Below are positions 2,520 through 37,773 of a stretch of DNA of 37,926 bases, one piece after another. The notes beneath the pieces are model-generated. The model saw only the letters and a list, made by a program, of their open reading frames with translations. It made no database searches and was not told where the DNA came from. A program made the position numbers and the translations under genes. The stretch's first letter is position 1. Each line of letters opens with the position of its first letter. This DNA comes from a virus. The stretch lies in UHGV virus genome UHGV-0206543; one strand, written 5' to 3'.

Positions 2520-2593
2520 TGGACCATACAGGACTCGAACCTGTGACCGAACGGTTATGAGCCGTTTGCTCTAACCAACTGAGCTAATGGTCC
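2520..2593 (-). tRNA. tRNA with CAT anticodon (elongator Met or lysidine-type Ile2), 74 nt, discriminator A, no encoded CCA
   Basis: Reverse complement is GGACCATTAGCTCAGTTGGTTAGAGCAAACGGCTCATAACCGTTCGGTCACAGGTTCGAGTCCTGTATGGTCCA, which folds into a full cloverleaf with 7-bp acceptor and T-loop TTCGAGT. The G1-C72 pair argues against an initiator tRNA. Confidence 0.85.
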
Positions 2594-23959: not shown

Positions 23960-24324
23960 ATTTTTCTCTCCTAGTTGTTTTATGTACTTGATTCAATAAA
24001 TCACTTCTTGCTATACTATTTATGGGTAGCAACTCCTTTTTGTAAATAGCAATCAACAAAAATTGTGCACGAATGCTACCTAGCTACTAGATCCCATAGT
24101 CTAGTGGCTTTTTTATGTACAAAAAAAGACCACTCATTTTTATTGAGTAGTCTAAAGATTTGTATTAGACTGCCTAGCCAATCTAACACTTATTTAACAA
24201 TACTAGGTTGCTAGCCACTTTATCCTGTTTCCGCAGGCTGGCTAATTCTGAAAGGAGGTGAACCGATCGTTAAAGTAAGAAACATTTATTGACGATTCTT
24301 TTATTTAAGTAGCTATGCTACCTA

Positions 24325-24396
24325 CTGGAACAATAGGACTCGAACCTATACCGACGGTTTTGGAGACCGCTGCTCTACCAGTTAAGCTATATCCCA
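24325..24396 (-). tRNA. tRNA-Trp (anticodon CCA), 72 nt, phage-encoded, unusual U1-A72 and two G-U pairs in acceptor stem
   Basis: Reverse complement is TGGGATATAGCTTAACTGGTAGAGCAGCGGTCTCCAAAACCGTCGGTATAGGTTCGAGTCCTATTGTTCCAG. It closely parallels the Bacillus tRNA-Trp architecture. Confidence 0.8.
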
Positions 24397-24702: not shown

Positions 24703-24740
24703 TCGACACTACCATAATAACACCTAAATATTGATAAAAA

Positions 24741-24769
24741 CCGCCAACTTTCCGCCAAAAAACCGCCAA
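24741..24769. repeat. three direct CCGCCAA (minus strand TTGGCGG) repeats at 11-bp phasing immediately 3' of arpU
   Basis: The sequence is aaaaCCGCCAActttCCGCCAAaaaaCCGCCAAaa. One-helical-turn spacing suggests a protein binding array. Confidence 0.35.
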
Positions 24770-24773
24770 AATT

Positions 24774-25190
24774 TTATTTATAGGCAATTATTTTTCCATT
24801 TCGATAAGCTTCAGCAAATTCAATTAAAGCCTCTGATTTCATTCGTTGAATACTTCTTTCAGAATATCCAACTTCCCTAGCTATCTTGTAATTAGAGTAA
24901 TGGTCCTGCACACAGAAACTATAATGCAAAATTTGTCTGCTAGTTAGGCTTAATGCCATAAGCGCAGATAAAATTGCGTCTCTTTCTGCTTCTGCATCTG
25001 CTAATTGTACTAGCGCATCTTCTGCTTTGTTCCCATGACTTTGGCTTTTAGGCATATCTGTAATAATTGGTGATTTTAAATCTATCAAAGAGCGACCAGC
25101 TATTCGCTCTAAACGTCTAAAATTCTTCAACACATTTCTAGCATTCGCTTTTGTTTGTCGAAAATCTACTTCTTTTAGCAATTGAATCAA
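24774..25190 (-). CDS. ArpU-family late transcriptional regulator (sigma-like)
   Basis: It is 138 aa. A C-terminal region-4-like HTH reads YKIAREVGYSERSIQRMK. It uses a TTG start with RBS AAGGAG 9 nt upstream. Its position before the late genes is typical. Confidence 0.75.
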   Translation of the reverse strand: MIQLLKEVDFRQTKANARNVLKNFRRLERIAGRSLIDLKSPIITDMPKSQSHGNKAEDALVQLADAEAERDAILSALMALSLTSRQILHYSFCVQDHYSNYKIAREVGYSERSIQRMKSEALIEFAEAYRNGKIIAYK

Positions 25191-25206
25191 GTGAAATCGC
25201 TCCTTT

Positions 25207-25258
25207 TGTGGTATAATAATAACGACTTTTCCACAAAGTTACCCACACATTATCCACA
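25207..25258. promoter_or_regulatory. face-to-face extended -10 promoter pair: TGTGGTATAAT (plus, 25207-25217) and its inverted copy ATTATCCACA (25249-25258, i.e. TGTGGATAAT on minus)
   Basis: A perfect inverted repeat of TGnTATAAT-type elements lies 31 bp apart, directly upstream of the arpU start. Confidence 0.35.
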
Positions 25259-25280
25259 GCCAGAGCAATCTGGCTTTTTT
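25259..25280 (+). terminator. plus-strand intrinsic terminator (GCCAGA-gcaa-TCTGGC-TTTTTT)
   Basis: A canonical hairpin plus T6 runs opposite to the local gene direction. Confidence 0.5.
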
Positions 25281-25393
25281 GTTGGCAGCTTTCTTTACTC
25301 ATGATAAAATATTTTTATTGTGACCAATGTTTGGGGTAGAGTAACCTCACATATCACAAGCTACCACTTTTCTGGTAAAATATTCTTCTTAGT

Positions 25394-25418
25394 CAACCAG
25401 TGGTCGGTTGGCTTTTTT
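25394..25418 (+). terminator. plus-strand intrinsic terminator (CAACC-agtggtc-GGTTG-GC-TTTTTT)
   Basis: A hairpin plus T6 follows an upstream TGGTAAAAT extended -10-like element at 25373-25381. Confidence 0.4.
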
Positions 25419-25490
25419 ATACTTGATTTTTTATAATGGGTTTGGTATAAAAATACTATAAAAAATAAACTTAATATTATTTCTTACAGA

Positions 25491-25520
25491 ACTACCTAGC
25501 GGAAACTAGGTAGTTTTTTT
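25491..25520 (+). terminator. plus-strand intrinsic terminator (ACTACCTAG-cggaaa-CTAGGTAGT-TTTTTTT)
   Basis: A 9-bp perfect stem plus T7 follows a TTGATT-17-TATAAA / TGGTATAAA element at 25423-25451. Confidence 0.55.
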
Positions 25521-25533
25521 ATACTATCATTTA

Positions 25534-25734
25534 TTATTCTTCCAATGCCCATCCCATTAATTTACTCATTTCAAATACTACATTTCGTCTTACTCCAGTT
25601 GAAATACCTAGATAATTAAATTTTAAAACATCCCATTCTAAATCAGTTGTAACTGTTTCAACATGCCTAACATCTTCAAACTTCATTGTTTCACCAGTCG
25701 GTAGCCATATGATCAAACTTTTTGATTTTTCCAT
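25534..25734 (-). CDS. hypothetical protein (66 aa)
   Basis: Intact ORF in the early region. Confidence 0.35.
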   Translation of the reverse strand: MEKSKSLIIWLPTGETMKFEDVRHVETVTTDLEWDVLKFNYLGISTGVRRNVVFEMSKLMGWALEE

Positions 25735-32425: not shown

Positions 32426-33102
32426 TATTTTTGCCCCCATGTAATGTTTTCTTCTGGTTGTGGCTGGAATTGTTGTATCCATTTCCTCAAAACTCCAATA
32501 GCTTTATTGAACATGCTAGCTGGCATGTTTTCATTGACATCTATATTTAATTCTTTACTTAGTTCATTGCGTACATAATCAAGTTCAGAATTTGATAATT
32601 CAGAAAGTTGTCGGATATGATCATTCAACGTAGCTAACTGTTTACCGCTAATCAAATTAACTTTCGGAGTATCGCTGTTCTTTTCAGCTGCCGTTTGGCC
32701 ATCGTCGTCTTTATCTGCTGCTATTCCAAATGCTGCCGAAAGCGAATAACGTCTTGCATATGTTGTTAAACTTCCTAATCCTTGAGGATTTGTTCCGCTA
32801 TCAGGAAATTCAAATGGACCATGAATGATATATTGCCCGCTTATATGAGTGATAATTGTTGTAACTTTTAACGCATTATTTTCATTGACAACATTTTGTT
32901 GAAAATCAATTCCGCTTTCGGATTCTTGCGCAGCTTTTCTAATCGCTTCTTCAATCGCTTTAAGAGTGGCATACTGGAAATTCATTGCTCCTTTTTTAGT
33001 CGAATAGGCAACTTCTGCATCAAATTTCGGTTGAGTTAACTTACTTTTTAATTTATACATACCATCAAAAAGTTTTTCTAAATTTTCACTGCAAGTATTC
33101 AT
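32425..33102 (-). CDS. ERF-family single-strand annealing protein (recombinase)
   Basis: RBS AGAGGAGGAA precedes it. It is 225 aa with a conserved core (YATLKAI...TTYARRYSL) and sits next to the DUF1351 gene. Confidence 0.55.
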   Translation of the reverse strand: MNTCSENLEKLFDGMYKLKSKLTQPKFDAEVAYSTKKGAMNFQYATLKAIEEAIRKAAQESESGIDFQQNVVNENNALKVTTIITHISGQYIIHGPFEFPDSGTNPQGLGSLTTYARRYSLSAAFGIAADKDDDGQTAAEKNSDTPKVNLISGKQLATLNDHIRQLSELSNSELDYVRNELSKELNIDVNENMPASMFNKAIGVLRKWIQQFQPQPEENITWGQK

Positions 33103-33340
33103 TTCGTTCCTCCTCTTTCAACAATGAAAGAACTTTTTCTAATCCTTCAATTAATTCAGATTTTTTGAAATAAGCACATTCATCTAAACTTTCAAATGCA
33201 AATCTAACCTCTTCATCTTCGCTATCTTGATACACAGCAACATGATCGTTTTCAATGTCTTTTTCAAAAATTAAAGAACCATATGGCGAAGATTCATCAA
33301 GTAAATGAATTCTCCCAATTGAATCAAATTCTACTTTCAT
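33086..33340 (-). CDS. hypothetical acidic protein (84 aa)
   Basis: Intact ORF that overlaps the ERF start. Confidence 0.35.
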   Translation of the reverse strand: MKVEFDSIGRIHLLDESSPYGSLIFEKDIENDHVAVYQDSEDEEVRFAFESLDECAYFKKSELIEGLEKVLSLLKEEERNEYLQ

Positions 33341-33406
33341 GATATAATTCCCCTATCAATATATGTTTTTGCGACTAATTGCTTGGCGGCATAGTCGCTT
33401 TTTTCA

Positions 33407-34682: not shown

Positions 34683-35090
34683 CTAGTTTGTTTTAAATTT
34701 TTTTATTTTATCTGTTTCTTCAATTTCTTCTACTGGTGTGCCTTTATCATCTTTCAATTCAGAATCATCTGGATCGAAATACATCTGGCCTCGTTGTCCA
34801 CTTTTCAATTCATTTGCTAACGGTTTTCCTTTACCATCTTGACCAATAATAATTTTTGAAGTTAATGCTTCTCTTGGAACTAATTTTGATTTCACTTGAT
34901 AATCAATCAAAATATCTTCACGATATTCGTCTGGAATAATCGTTAAATCAATTGTTATCTTTCTCTTTTTTGTAGGATCTGTATTAGGATCATTAATATT
35001 GTTAATGACTTGAGCAAGCTCATAATCAAATCGTTCTTGTAATCCCCCCTCACTAATCCCACTTAAAGGAACATTAATATTTTTTGACAT
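34683..35090 (-). CDS. hypothetical protein (135 aa)
   Basis: Intact ORF. Confidence 0.35.
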   Translation of the reverse strand: MSKNINVPLSGISEGGLQERFDYELAQVINNINDPNTDPTKKRKITIDLTIIPDEYREDILIDYQVKSKLVPREALTSKIIIGQDGKGKPLANELKSGQRGQMYFDPDDSELKDDKGTPVEEIEETDKIKKFKTN

Positions 35091-35177
35091 TTTATTGCCG
35101 TCCTTTCTGTGATATAATTTATTTAGATTCTATTCACTTTATTTCCCCTGCTTTAGCTCTAACTAAAGTGGGGCTTT

Positions 35178-35378
35178 TTATTTTGTCTTTTTTTTAGAAT
35201 ATTGGTATTTTGCTTCATCCCAATTGAAAAACCAATGAATAAAGAAAGGTGCACTTAGTGTTGCTAGTATTGGCGTTGAAAAGTGATTTTTCAGCAATGC
35301 TCCTAGCGCAATCATCACTAAAAATGTTCCTATCAGTCGAGCTTCACGTATCGCTTTCATGGTTAACCTCCTATGCAT
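35178..35378 (-). CDS. small membrane protein (66 aa, two hydrophobic segments)
   Basis: Segments LIGTFLVMIALGALL and FFIHWFFNW are hydrophobic. Confidence 0.35.
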   Translation of the reverse strand: MHRRLTMKAIREARLIGTFLVMIALGALLKNHFSTPILATLSAPFFIHWFFNWDEAKYQYSKKKTK

Positions 35379-36910: not shown

Positions 36911-37025
36911 TCGCATTTATGCGACTTGATATTTGTAATATACCACCTTGAATGTCATCAGTCAACAAAAAAGTTGCATTTATGCAATTATTTTTGTTGC
37001 AATTATGCAACCTGCAATATATAAT
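36911..37025. promoter_or_regulatory. genetic switch: operators O1 TCGCATTTATGCGA (36911-36924), O2 TTGCATTTATGCAA (36974-36987), O3 TTGCAATTATGCAA (36997-37010); leftward cro promoter TTGACT-17-TATATT (36960-36937); rightward cI promoter TTGCAA-17-TATAAT (36997-37025)
   Basis: There are three 14-bp dyad sites with consensus TyGCAwTTATGCrA. O1 lies at about +6 to +19 of the cro promoter. O3 overlaps the cI -35. Confidence 0.6.
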
Positions 37026-37044
37026 AATTATTGGAGGTGATAAA

Positions 37045-37773
37045 ATGAATGTAGGCGAACGCATGAAATTAAGAAGAAAAGAATTGAATATTAGCGCTGA
37101 TAAAATCGCTAATGAACTGGGTGTATCACGTTCAACAATTTTTAGATATGAAAAAGGCGATATCGAAAAACTACCTACAGAGAGATTGATAACTATTGCT
37201 AAAATTCTAAAAACAACTCCCGAAGAATTGATGGGCTGGAACACTTCGAATGATTTTTCTTCGATAGAAGCTATCTATAATAAGTTAGATACTACGAGAA
37301 AGCAGAAAGTATGTAGGTATGCCGAGCATCAATTAGAAGAGCAAAAAAGAAATACATCTAATAATAAAGTTATTGCTTTCATGCCAACAAATACAACCAC
37401 TGTAGAACTTTCAGGCAGATTATCAGCTGGTGGAGGTGCATTTAATGACAAAGGTTGTATAGAAAGTGTTGAAGTAGGCTCAGCTCCTTCGCAGTATGAT
37501 TTAGCATTCCAAGTTTGTGGAGACAGTATGTACCCTACTTTTCAAGATGGTGAAATTGTTTTTGTAAAAGAAACTATGGATATCTATAATGGACAGATTG
37601 GGGCAATTGAAATTAATGGCGAAGCATTTATTAAAAAAATGTACCTAGAAGGAACTAGGCTGCGTCTGGTGTCTCTAAATACTGAAATAGATGAAGATGG
37701 AAATCGATTATATCCTGATTTTTACGCTGACGAATTAGATGATTTATATGTAATCGGACGTGTAATTATATAA
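37045..37773 (+). CDS. cI: CI-like repressor: XRE HTH plus LexA-type S24 autopeptidase domain
   Basis: The HTH reads ISADKIANELGVSRSTIFRYEKG. The S24 catalytic Ser (GDSMYP) and Lys (FIKKM) are present. RBS GGAGGTG precedes it. Confidence 0.9.
   Translation: MNVGERMKLRRKELNISADKIANELGVSRSTIFRYEKGDIEKLPTERLITIAKILKTTPEELMGWNTSNDFSSIEAIYNKLDTTRKQKVCRYAEHQLEEQKRNTSNNKVIAFMPTNTTTVELSGRLSAGGGAFNDKGCIESVEVGSAPSQYDLAFQVCGDSMYPTFQDGEIVFVKETMDIYNGQIGAIEINGEAFIKKMYLEGTRLRLVSLNTEIDEDGNRLYPDFYADELDDLYVIGRVII

Follow-up and report, generated by a model that had tools for sequence, protein, structure and literature searches.

The 37,926-nucleotide viral genome UHGV-0206543 (the whole stretch analyzed here, hereafter the window) represents a phiFL-type (Phifelvirus) prophage of Enterococcus faecalis, with megablast matches to phiFL1 and phiFL2 at 91-95% identity. 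Its arpU gene (24774-25190, minus strand, TTG start, taken from the open reading frame (ORF) list) encodes the transcriptional activator of the late genes responsible for packaging and lysis, and the 343-bp gap upstream of it (25191-25533) carries promoters and intrinsic terminators that alternate on the plus strand, against the direction of lytic transcription. The conserved core of this arrangement is cassette 1, composed of an extended -10 promoter (P1) placed beside the arpU Shine-Dalgarno (SD) sequence, a predicted short RNA (RNA 1) and an intrinsic terminator (T1). Cassettes 2 and 3, located behind it, are mosaic, swappable small RNA (sRNA) cassettes that move among phages and are kin of Ref94 of E. 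faecalis V583 and of a family of CGGAAA-loop RNAs. On balance, we favor the view that the gap is a cis-antisense countertranscript and promoter-interference device setting the output of ArpU, a view built on the elements themselves, their strand bias and conservation, the covariation of their stems, and the start sites mapped in a homologous prophage.

Promoter-terminator units upstream of arpU

The plus strand of the gap contains four TGNTAWAAW extended -10 elements and three intrinsic terminators (reported by the scan at 25258-25275, 25391-25413, and 25488-25517, each followed by a T-run), which together form four promoter-then-terminator units; the minus strand of the same 343 bp holds no extended -10 element, no terminator, and no such unit. 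In 2000 dinucleotide shuffles of 25191-25533, the plus strand contained on average 0.084 TGNTAWAAW elements, 0.086 terminators, and 0.002 promoter-then-terminator units, compared with the 4, 3, and 4 observed. A first-pass annotation, made from the sequence alone, had recognized plus-strand promoter/terminator mini-units in this region, and the shuffles, together with the relatives described below, show that they are real, strand-specific, and conserved. The elements on which it relied are all present, namely TGTGGTATAAT (25207-25217), TGGTAAAAT (25373-25381), and TGGTATAAA (25443-25451) on the plus strand, a plus-strand terminator after each of them, and the TTG start and AAGGAG ribosome-binding site (RBS) of arpU, and the flanking genes are, as it stated, all encoded on the minus strand. 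Its reading of the units as sources of antisense small RNAs upstream of the late regulator is also sound, since the P1 homologue is a mapped start in V583 and three further plus-strand starts precede the same kinds of hairpin there.

A coding role of the plus-strand gap ORFs was rejected because they run through the terminators and lack RBSs; the earlier statement that no plus-strand ORFs exist is therefore literally wrong, as ORFs of 40 and 38 aa are present, and correct in effect. A type I toxin-antitoxin system was rejected as well, the ORFs of at least 20 aa in 25180-25560 being non-hydrophobic and either lacking an SD or crossing terminators. An Rfam scan of the window returned nothing except tRNAs above threshold, with no family at threshold in the gap region, and the phiFL loci gave no Rfam match either. 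The match to RF02845 (Ref1C, Enterococcus sRNA 1C) reached 22.9 bits against a gathering threshold of 90 (E = 1.8) and was rejected as chance, Ref1C being an sRNA of the core genome (PMC3074167); the weak matches to STnc370 and ctRNA_pND324 were likewise dismissed as chance.

Characteristics of cassette 1

P1 (TGTGGTATAAT, 25207-25217, plus strand) points away from arpU and begins 2 nt past the complement of the arpU SD (AAGGAG, 25199-25204 on the complement, minus strand), which is evident in the sequence itself at a distance of 8 nt from the TTG codon. T1 lies at 25258-25280 (plus strand; AGCCAGA-GCAA-TCTGGCT, then a T-run). With a 5' end placed, by homology to the V583 start, 8 nt after the hexamer, the predicted antisense RNA 1 would span 25225-25280 (plus strand) and measure about 55 nt, the length proposed earlier; the segment 25224-25281 folds with -13.1 kcal/mol (z = -4.9). 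In relatives, the T1 stem is kept through A-U, G-U, and G-C swaps (AGCCGGA..TCTGGCT, AGTCGGA..TCCGGCT), with wobble pairs possible on the plus strand only. The promoter is thus found opposite the 5' end of its target, and a terminator of its own would make the product a short, discrete RNA, as is characteristic of cis-antisense regulators.

RNA 1 also contains three direct repeats of TT(T/A)(T/C)CCACA (25227-25258, plus strand) spaced by 11-12 bp, with an inverted TGTGG in P1 (25207-25211). This is the sole such cluster in the window, where the motif is otherwise not enriched (16 matches vs 12.3 expected), and it is limited to the window type and one other mosaic type of the gap. We rejected the TTATCCACA repeats as repressor operators, no similar cluster being present elsewhere, including the cI/cro region.

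The annotation of arpU itself differs in phiFL2B, whose gp34 (L001 1573-2040) is 99% identical to the window ArpU. It was annotated 17 aa longer, from a GTG codon without an SD, and the extra residues would fall inside the P1/T1 unit; in the window this extension is closed by a stop codon, which supports the TTG start with AAGGAG.

Conservation of cassette 1 among phages

We compared the gap across 83 E. faecalis phage loci (phiFL1A, phiFL1C, phiFL2B, and 80 IMG/VR contigs, labelled L001 and so on). The sequence CTCCTTTT[G/A]TG[G/T]TATAAT beside arpU is constant in all of them, and past P1 the DNA is of at least five unrelated types. All but the deletion variant L032, which lacks a terminator, reach one on the plus strand within 40-70 nt. 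The remainder of the gap consists of one to five promoter-to-terminator cassettes shuffled among phages.

The same unit occurs far beyond E. faecalis. A search of species-representative Enterococcus genomes with the ArpU profile yielded 20 usable loci (ArpU 38-80% identical), in 16 of which an antisense TGnTATAAT begins 1-6 nt past the arpU SD and is followed, after another 25-35 nt, by a terminator; their spacers are unrelated and their stems covary. Among 13 other phage records sampled, the unit was found in 11, comprising Streptococcus pneumoniae EJ-1 and IPP67, S. suis phiS10, S. parauberis Javan407, the virulent S. thermophilus phages 2972, CHPC926, and CHPC952, Lacticaseibacillus phages CL1 and R23.9, Latilactobacillus phage P1, and phiFL3A, and was missing from Lj928 and SM1. 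Overall, 27 of the 33 diverse arpU loci carry it, as do 202 of 225 loci in lineage-wide IMG/VR samples (68/69, 54/76, and 80/80). The depositors of EJ-1 had annotated an "extended -10 promoter" on the antisense strand.

Across these loci TG and TATAAT do not vary, whereas any of the four bases can stand at the n between them, which is the signature of an extended -10 element read on the antisense strand. Measured from the -10 element to the end of the T-run, the unit is 42-76 nt long in the different lineages, corresponding to RNAs of about 27-60 nt. The position of the unit remains fixed in carriers whose ArpU proteins are as little as 27-35% identical, a divergence at which descent alone would not have kept neighboring non-coding DNA; the unit is therefore under selection, with the antisense strand as the one that is read.

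The slot behind cassette 1 can also hold protein cargo on the antisense strand. L063 has there a 60-aa hydrophobic ORF with an SD and a terminator, phiFL3A (L113) likewise a small hydrophobic ORF, and EJ-1 (L109 154-646) a pair of ORFs with Pfam similarity to MazE (weak) and to PemK/MazF. In the early operon of the window, a similar RBS-abutting antisense unit (35108-35180) is formed by TGTGATATAAT (35108-35118, plus strand) at the RBS of the ORF 34683-35090 (minus strand) and a plus-strand terminator at 35146-35173, and another (33340-33404) by TGATATAAT (33340-33348, plus strand), which overlaps the start of the ORF 33086-33340 (minus strand), and a terminator at 33385-33399. The V583 start site 1956941(+) (...CCTCTTTTCTGTGTTACAAT), antisense to EF2032, shows the RBS-abutting layout too.

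Transcription start sites in the V583 prophage pp4

Experimental evidence for transcription comes from V583, using the start sites determined by differential RNA sequencing and listed in Table S1 of Michaux 2020 (PMC7724050), where ArpU of prophage pp4 is EF2024. The transcription start site (TSS) 1952877(+), classified as antisense and as a putative antisense RNA, has a step height of 178 and an enrichment of 26.6 and is enriched by terminator exonuclease (TEX) treatment (Michaux 2020, PMC7724050); the sequence upstream of it ends in ...CGCTCCTTTTATGGTATAATAATTTATA, the homologue of P1, 35 nt from the arpU start codon. The next site, 1953002(+), is an orphan TSS with a step height of 1603 (Michaux 2020, PMC7724050), and its RNA is short and ends in a CGGAAA-loop hairpin. 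TSS 1953273(+), antisense to EF2025, reaches a step height of 92,897 (PMC7724050) and produces Ref94 of Innocenti 2015 (PMC4408782), a homologue of a structured phiFL RNA of about 185 nt. TSS 1953538(+), also antisense to EF2025 and a putative antisense RNA, has a step height of 229 (PMC7724050), and the order of elements there mirrors the passage from the second terminator (T2) to cassette 3 in the window. These homologues are transcribed in uninduced cultures, Ref94 being extremely abundant (PMC7724050).

The arpU gene of V583 has its own starts, 1952986(-) (primary) and 1953135(-) (secondary), both weak (step heights 23 and 20), with 5' untranslated regions (UTRs) of 144 and 293 nt (PMC7724050). 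As the 144-nt 5' UTR spans the P1-T1 unit, sense and antisense RNAs overlap there in V583. For the window, transcription would be expected by homology in the case of P1, and by position and partial homology in the case of cassettes 2 and 3. The direct relatives of the window elements are limited to these catalogued V583 starts and Ref94, which have never been linked to arpU, and our literature search found no paper linking arpU to an sRNA.

Two observations concern the Ref94 group. In phiFL phages, a 63-aa "conserved hypothetical protein" is annotated opposite arpU (phiFL2B gp33, L001 2191-2382; phiFL1C gp38, L002 3513-3704; phiFL1A gp33, L003 2192-2383), which lacks an RBS, crosses a terminator hairpin, and coincides with the Ref94-homologous RNA of about 185 nt; this ORF call is probably spurious. 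Furthermore, the intergenic sRNA_027 of V583 (532495-532604) was predicted by its authors to pair with EF2025 over 68 nt with -33 kcal/mol (PMC7724050). This suggests that sRNA_027 is a Ref94-like paralogue located outside the prophage. We take the interval 532495-532604 to be part of the pathogenicity island.

Cassettes 2 and 3 and their hairpin-loop families

The top-scoring promoter of the region, missed in the first-pass annotation, is P2 (TTGGCA-17 nt-TGATAAAAT, 25282-25310, plus strand). It shares the context CTTTACTCATGATAWAAT with the promoter of the phiFL RNA, occupies the same position as V583 TSS 1953273 (Ref94), and is probably the promoter of cassette 2. The predicted RNA 2 of about 100 nt (25317-25418, plus strand) comprises a 5' stem-loop, a middle hairpin, and the T2 terminator, and folds with -26.9 kcal/mol (z = -2.3). 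The element TGGTAAAAT (25373-25381, plus strand), previously assigned as the promoter of this unit, is more likely a piece of the RNA 2 hairpin, since a start there would leave about 30 nt, that is, the terminator hairpin itself, and its TGGTA pairs with TACCA in the predicted RNA. T2 (25391-25418, plus strand) has the structure AGTCAACC-AGTGGTC-GGTTGGCT followed by a T-run, and belongs to a "GTGGTC-loop" family in which the relatives AGTCAGCC-ATTGGTC-GGCTGGCT and AGTCAGCT-AGTGGTC-AGCTGGCT represent compensatory stem changes; the loop is also present in phages of E. dongliensis, E. hailinensis, E. mundtii, and E. huntleyi. The entire cassette 2 is found at other positions in L015, L046, L058, and L059, in L015 and L058 behind other neighbors. 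In comparison with Ref94 and the phiFL RNA, only the promoter context and the 3' hairpin align.

Cassette 3 has two candidate promoters on the plus strand, TTGGCT-18 nt-TATAAT (25408-25437, with TATAAT at 25432-25437) and the extended -10-like TGGTATAAA (25443-25451), and its TGGTATAAAAATA is a 92% direct repeat of TGGTATAATAATA of P1. The predicted RNA 3 (25458-25520, plus strand) would measure about 65 nt, or about 80 nt if it started near 25444, and folds with -15.5 kcal/mol (z = -5.0). By its position after a GTGGTC-loop terminator and before a CGGAAA-loop terminator, cassette 3 matches V583 TSS 1953538(+). L046, otherwise identical, has cassettes 1 and 2 of the window and lacks cassette 3, which is therefore a presence/absence cassette.

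The T3 terminator (25488-25520, plus strand; terminator scan) is a 12-bp hairpin with the hexaloop CGGAAA (25500-25505), followed by a T-run. Hairpins of this type occur in the related loci on eleven different stems, of which ten carry the CGGAAA loop and that of L015 carries AAAAAA. In the stem alignment 95.5% of cells are paired and 8 of the 10 pairs show compensatory changes, which none of 500 shuffles equalled, and an excess of G-U over A-C cells on the plus strand (11 vs 3) indicates an RNA folded from that strand. Every CGGAAA in the gaps of the related loci sits in a hairpin loop. The terminators thus fall into three loop families, GCAA/GCGAT (T1), (A)GTGGTC (T2), and CGGAAA (T3), and, as judged from sequence comparison, invariant loops on covarying stems suggest a trans-acting reader. 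The loop GCGGAAA (25499-25505) equals the core of the middle ArpU box GGCGGAA (24750-24756), and the loops of phiFL and V583 match it at all seven bases. Mimicry of ArpU boxes, or a decoy function of the CGGAAA loop, was nevertheless rejected because GCGGAA is not enriched in the window and the E. mundtii locus L095 combines GTAGGG boxes with a GGCGGAAAG loop.

The late switch and the source of arpU transcription

The arpU product of the window matches the NCBIfam model TIGR01637 (phage_arpU) with 134 bits, well above the cut-off of 43. ArpU of phiFL2A was shown experimentally to activate the terS late promoter, and its binding site, three direct repeats of 7 nt, lies immediately downstream of the arpU gene itself; in reporter assays ArpU alone was enough to switch terS on (PMC3753634). 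Repeats fitting the described phiFL2A site (PMC3753634) are present in the window on the minus strand (GGCGGTT, 24761-24767; GGCGGAA, 24750-24756; GGCGGTT, 24739-24745), followed by a late promoter -10 element TATTAT (24714-24719, minus strand) with a TSS predicted at about 24707 from V583 TSS 1952358(-), so that the ArpU target region as a whole spans 24707-24767. Further downstream lie a tRNA-Trp gene (24325-24396, minus strand) and, past it and before the next minus-strand ORFs, back-to-back terminators (24082-24109, plus strand; 24153-24127, minus strand), so that the packaging genes are separated from the ArpU-dependent promoter by a terminator. Another tRNA gene (Met) is located at 2520-2593 (minus strand).

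The map of the window is otherwise that of a minus-strand lytic operon, with a cro-like gene, an ORF6N/C antirepressor-like gene, and an ERF recombinase gene all on the minus strand and a cI-like repressor gene at 36952-37773 (plus strand). The terminator scan of the window found no minus-strand terminator between the early genes and arpU. Together with the lack of a good local sense promoter, this leads one to expect read-through, and it is more likely that arpU is transcribed in this way from the early operon, as has been demonstrated by experiment for rinA of 80alpha (PMC3753634). Weak local promoters may add to it, by analogy with the V583 starts at -144 and -293. A TATTAT on the sense (minus) strand that overlaps P1 (25221-25213) is also a weak candidate.

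Discussion

We propose that each cassette is a complete small transcription unit aimed against lytic transcription, in which a host sigma-A extended -10 promoter is followed by a short body without coding function and then by an intrinsic terminator. The -10 element of P1 is wedged against the arpU SD, and RNA polymerase bound there would therefore cover the DNA of the arpU RBS and start codon. Polymerase bound at or firing from P1 could collide with, or block, polymerases arriving from the early operon, and RNA 1 would pair with the arpU leader from about -35 upstream, forming a duplex beside the ribosome landing zone that could be processed by RNase III. Cassettes 2 and 3 would be antisense to the same leader and provide extra coverage, with a possible action in trans as well. 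In this manner, early read-through would be converted into ArpU in a set proportion, silencing leakage in lysogens and imposing a threshold or delay on the late genes. As ArpU alone switches the late operon, leakage would be lethal to a lysogen, which provides a rationale for tight control. A possible role in timing late transcription, as suggested in the first-pass annotation, is plausible. We infer here that the transcripts are made in this phage, overlap the arpU mRNA, and affect ArpU with a particular sign; for RNA 1 we prefer repression, and activation may also fit some of the modelled leader folds.

Several observations weigh against this proposal. The V583 evidence concerns a different mosaic variant of the gap, so that transcripts of the window are predicted by comparison; the promoter strings of the window type do not occur among the V583 TSS rows listed (to 2.39 Mb), and the final sRNA list of Michaux 2020 omits the start sites discussed above (PMC7724050). 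TEX-based RNA sequencing of S. thermophilus phage 2972 reported only an early and a middle promoter (PMC11551762), a negative result limited by the loss of such short RNAs from standard libraries. The unit is missing from 6 of the 33 diverse loci, and about 29% of loci in the CL1-like group have a degenerate -10 element with the terminator kept. RNA 1 falls short of the SD itself, and in several lineages leader folds predict that an antisense RNA could free a sequestered SD, leading to activation. In some lineages (L105, L113) the predicted transcript is only about 26-30 nt, close to a bare hairpin, which fits promoter occupancy better than a base-pairing regulator and suggests that occupancy is no less important than the RNA. 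Finally, the retention of cassette 1 in virulent S. thermophilus phages makes a role restricted to lysogeny too narrow and points to the lytic program.

We regard the opposite sign of control as less likely. In such a mechanism, an anti-SD in the leader would hide the arpU RBS, P1 would lie in the hairpin loop, and RNA 1, complementary to the anti-SD arm, would unlock translation by itself or through RNase III cleavage; strong early transcription would occlude P1, delaying ArpU until early transcription drops. Predicted SD-sequestering helices with the 5' arm inside the antisense target are consistent with it in EJ-1 (15 bp, z = -3.3), in the S. thermophilus locus L287 (8 bp, z = -2.8), in the phiFL locus L001, and in the E. 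durans locus L087, where the T1 complement GAUCGCUCC pairs with GGAGCGGUU (z = -4.3). In several Enterococcus lineages, the plus strand of T1 holds GGAGCGAT-like copies of the arpU SD region, including an identical 9-mer, GGGCGATTG, in E. casseliflavus. Across 33 lineages, the probability that the SD is paired was 0.72, compared with 0.61 in shuffled leaders (Wilcoxon p = 0.006), an effect that is modest and uneven: in the window the value was 0.56 against 0.60 in shuffles (non-significant), the predicted helix beside the SD has only 7 bp, and purine-rich SDs pair with U-rich leaders by chance, which puts the baseline at about 0.6. Moreover, an activating RNA made constitutively in lysogens, as the V583 start sites indicate, would be no guard against leaky arpU mRNA.

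It is less probable still that the cassettes are moron sRNAs, expressed in lysogeny and acting in trans on targets of the host or of competitor phages, which gathered at an insertion-tolerant early/late junction and have only an incidental link to arpU. Cassettes 2 and 3 would suit this explanation, being mosaic presence/absence units, each with its own promoter and terminator, whose V583 homologues are transcribed without induction (Ref94 abundantly so) and whose fixed CGGAAA and GTGGTC loops on covarying stems point to a trans partner; the protein cargo found in the same slot of L063, phiFL3A, and EJ-1 (MazE/PemK) agrees with it too. It leaves unexplained, however, why cassette 1 holds a fixed position at the arpU SD when ArpU itself is only 27-35% identical, why virulent phages retain the unit, and why the body of cassette 1 lacks any conserved stretch able to act as a seed.

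A terminator stack that merely insulates the early genes from stray antisense transcription, with incidental promoter-like matches in AT-rich DNA, was offered as an alternative in the first-pass annotation and is very improbable: all three hairpins are unidirectional plus-strand terminators, and such terminators are over-represented across the minus-strand operons (30 found vs 9.2 expected, both strands together), but a consensus extended -10 element precedes each by 30-100 nt and promoter and terminator travel together as a cassette, the promoters are under selection (invariant TG and TATAAT) and used in V583, and nothing upstream on the plus strand needs insulation, arpU and the late genes being on the other strand.

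Equally hard to credit is a perfect face-to-face pair of equal, convergent extended -10 promoters 31 bp apart, in which the plus element fires through a minus-strand one driving arpU. The sequence ATTATCCACA at 25249-25258, 31 nt from the P1 element, does read TGTGGATAAT on the minus strand (25258-25249) with a GATAAT hexamer matching in five of six positions, a weak sense TATTAT overlaps P1, and at the start of arpU in EJ-1 the annotators likewise marked predicted promoters that overlap on the two strands. The supposed exact inverted copy is, however, 10 nt long against 11 nt for TGTGGTATAAT, and this missing base sets TG directly against GATAAT, off the -15/-14 register required of an extended -10 element; its best -35 element matches in three of six positions, and the promoter scan did not report it. 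It occurs in just two mosaic types among the 83 E. faecalis loci and is absent from the phiFL-type, the V583-type, and all other P1-T1 lineages, and the V583 arpU starts at -144 and -293 leave none at the equivalent site. We therefore regard TGTGGATAAT as a weak, unconserved candidate and retain the countertranscript and interference device as our preferred explanation.

Control of a phage regulator by cis-antisense or convergent transcription is a known principle, and what appears to be new, as far as sequence comparison can tell, is the unusually wide conservation of cassette 1 at arpU. The sar RNA of P22, about 70 nt long, is antisense to the antirepressor gene ant and is made from a backward promoter at the 5' end of ant, convergent with the ant promoter, and ends at an intrinsic terminator upstream. 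Cassette 1 resembles it in specifying a short backward RNA at the 5' end of a phage regulator with its own upstream terminator, whereas sar covers the ant RBS and RNA 1 would start about 20 nt upstream of the SD; in addition, the target here is a late activator, the host is Gram-positive, and cassette 1 is known from sequence. In lambda, paQ (anti-Q) likewise produces an antisense transcript against a late-transcription regulator and lowers or delays late commitment, but paQ depends on CII and is situated within the Q coding sequence, whereas P1 is a consensus sigma-A extended -10 promoter of constitutive type, placed outside the coding region, followed at once by a terminator, and present in virulent phages as well. 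In the "sitting duck" arrangement of coliphage 186, polymerases of the close, opposing pR and pL promoters interfere, their relative strengths setting the output, and both drive long operons; in the window, P1 is most likely opposed by the early promoter, which is distant, and the interfering transcript would end after 30-60 nt. The countertranscripts of inc18 and pT181 plasmids (pIP501 RNAIII, pAMbeta1 ctRNA) are small, structured, constitutive antisense RNAs directed against the leader of a regulator or replication gene, in which they force the formation of an attenuator terminator. They share with cassette 1 the host group (enterococci and streptococci), the leader target, and the intrinsic terminators, but no sense-strand terminator lies between the antisense target and arpU, which excludes attenuation of the plasmid type. 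None of these systems shares sequence with the gap elements.

Ref94 and its neighbors in V583 (PMC4408782, PMC7724050) are closer, occupying the same slot in the same orientation with a homologous P1, the cassette 2 promoter context, a GTGGTC-loop terminator and TTAGTCARCYAGTGGTCRGYTGGCTTTTT 3' module, and a CGGAAA-loop terminator corresponding to that of cassette 3. The RNA bodies of cassettes 2 and 3 fail to align with them, and the number and order of cassettes differ. RNA 2 may work like Ref94, but with a body that does not align it is not a member of that family.

More speculatively, and with a lower probability, ArpU-type late activators may have an obligatory, previously undescribed partner, in which a host sigma-A extended -10 element placed in a leader loop against the RBS, a terminated antisense RNA of 30-60 nt, and an anti-SD together form a developmental timer shared by the whole family. 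If so, the translation of the late activator would be locked or unlocked by the balance between early read-through and antisense firing in temperate and virulent phages of Enterococcus, Streptococcus, and lactobacilli, and phage gene control would include a broader antisense level with a trans-acting reader, of which the RBS-abutting units on other early genes and the invariant CGGAAA and GTGGTC loops would be signs.

A very large group of Gram-positive phages, including those that mobilize virulence and resistance genes and the S. thermophilus phages troublesome to dairies, relies on ArpU/RinA-type proteins as the single switch for packaging and lysis, and the control of the level and timing of these activators has so far been known only as co-transcription with early genes. 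Our findings point to unannotated small RNAs and misannotated ORFs, such as phiFL gp33/gp38, in many phage genomes. On the evidence of its sequence and distribution, cassette 1 is probably an overlooked control on the timing of packaging and lysis; a unit so closely attached to the arpU RBS offers a concrete, mutable handle on the control of the late activator, and could explain how lysogens avoid the lethal, leaky activation of their lysis genes.

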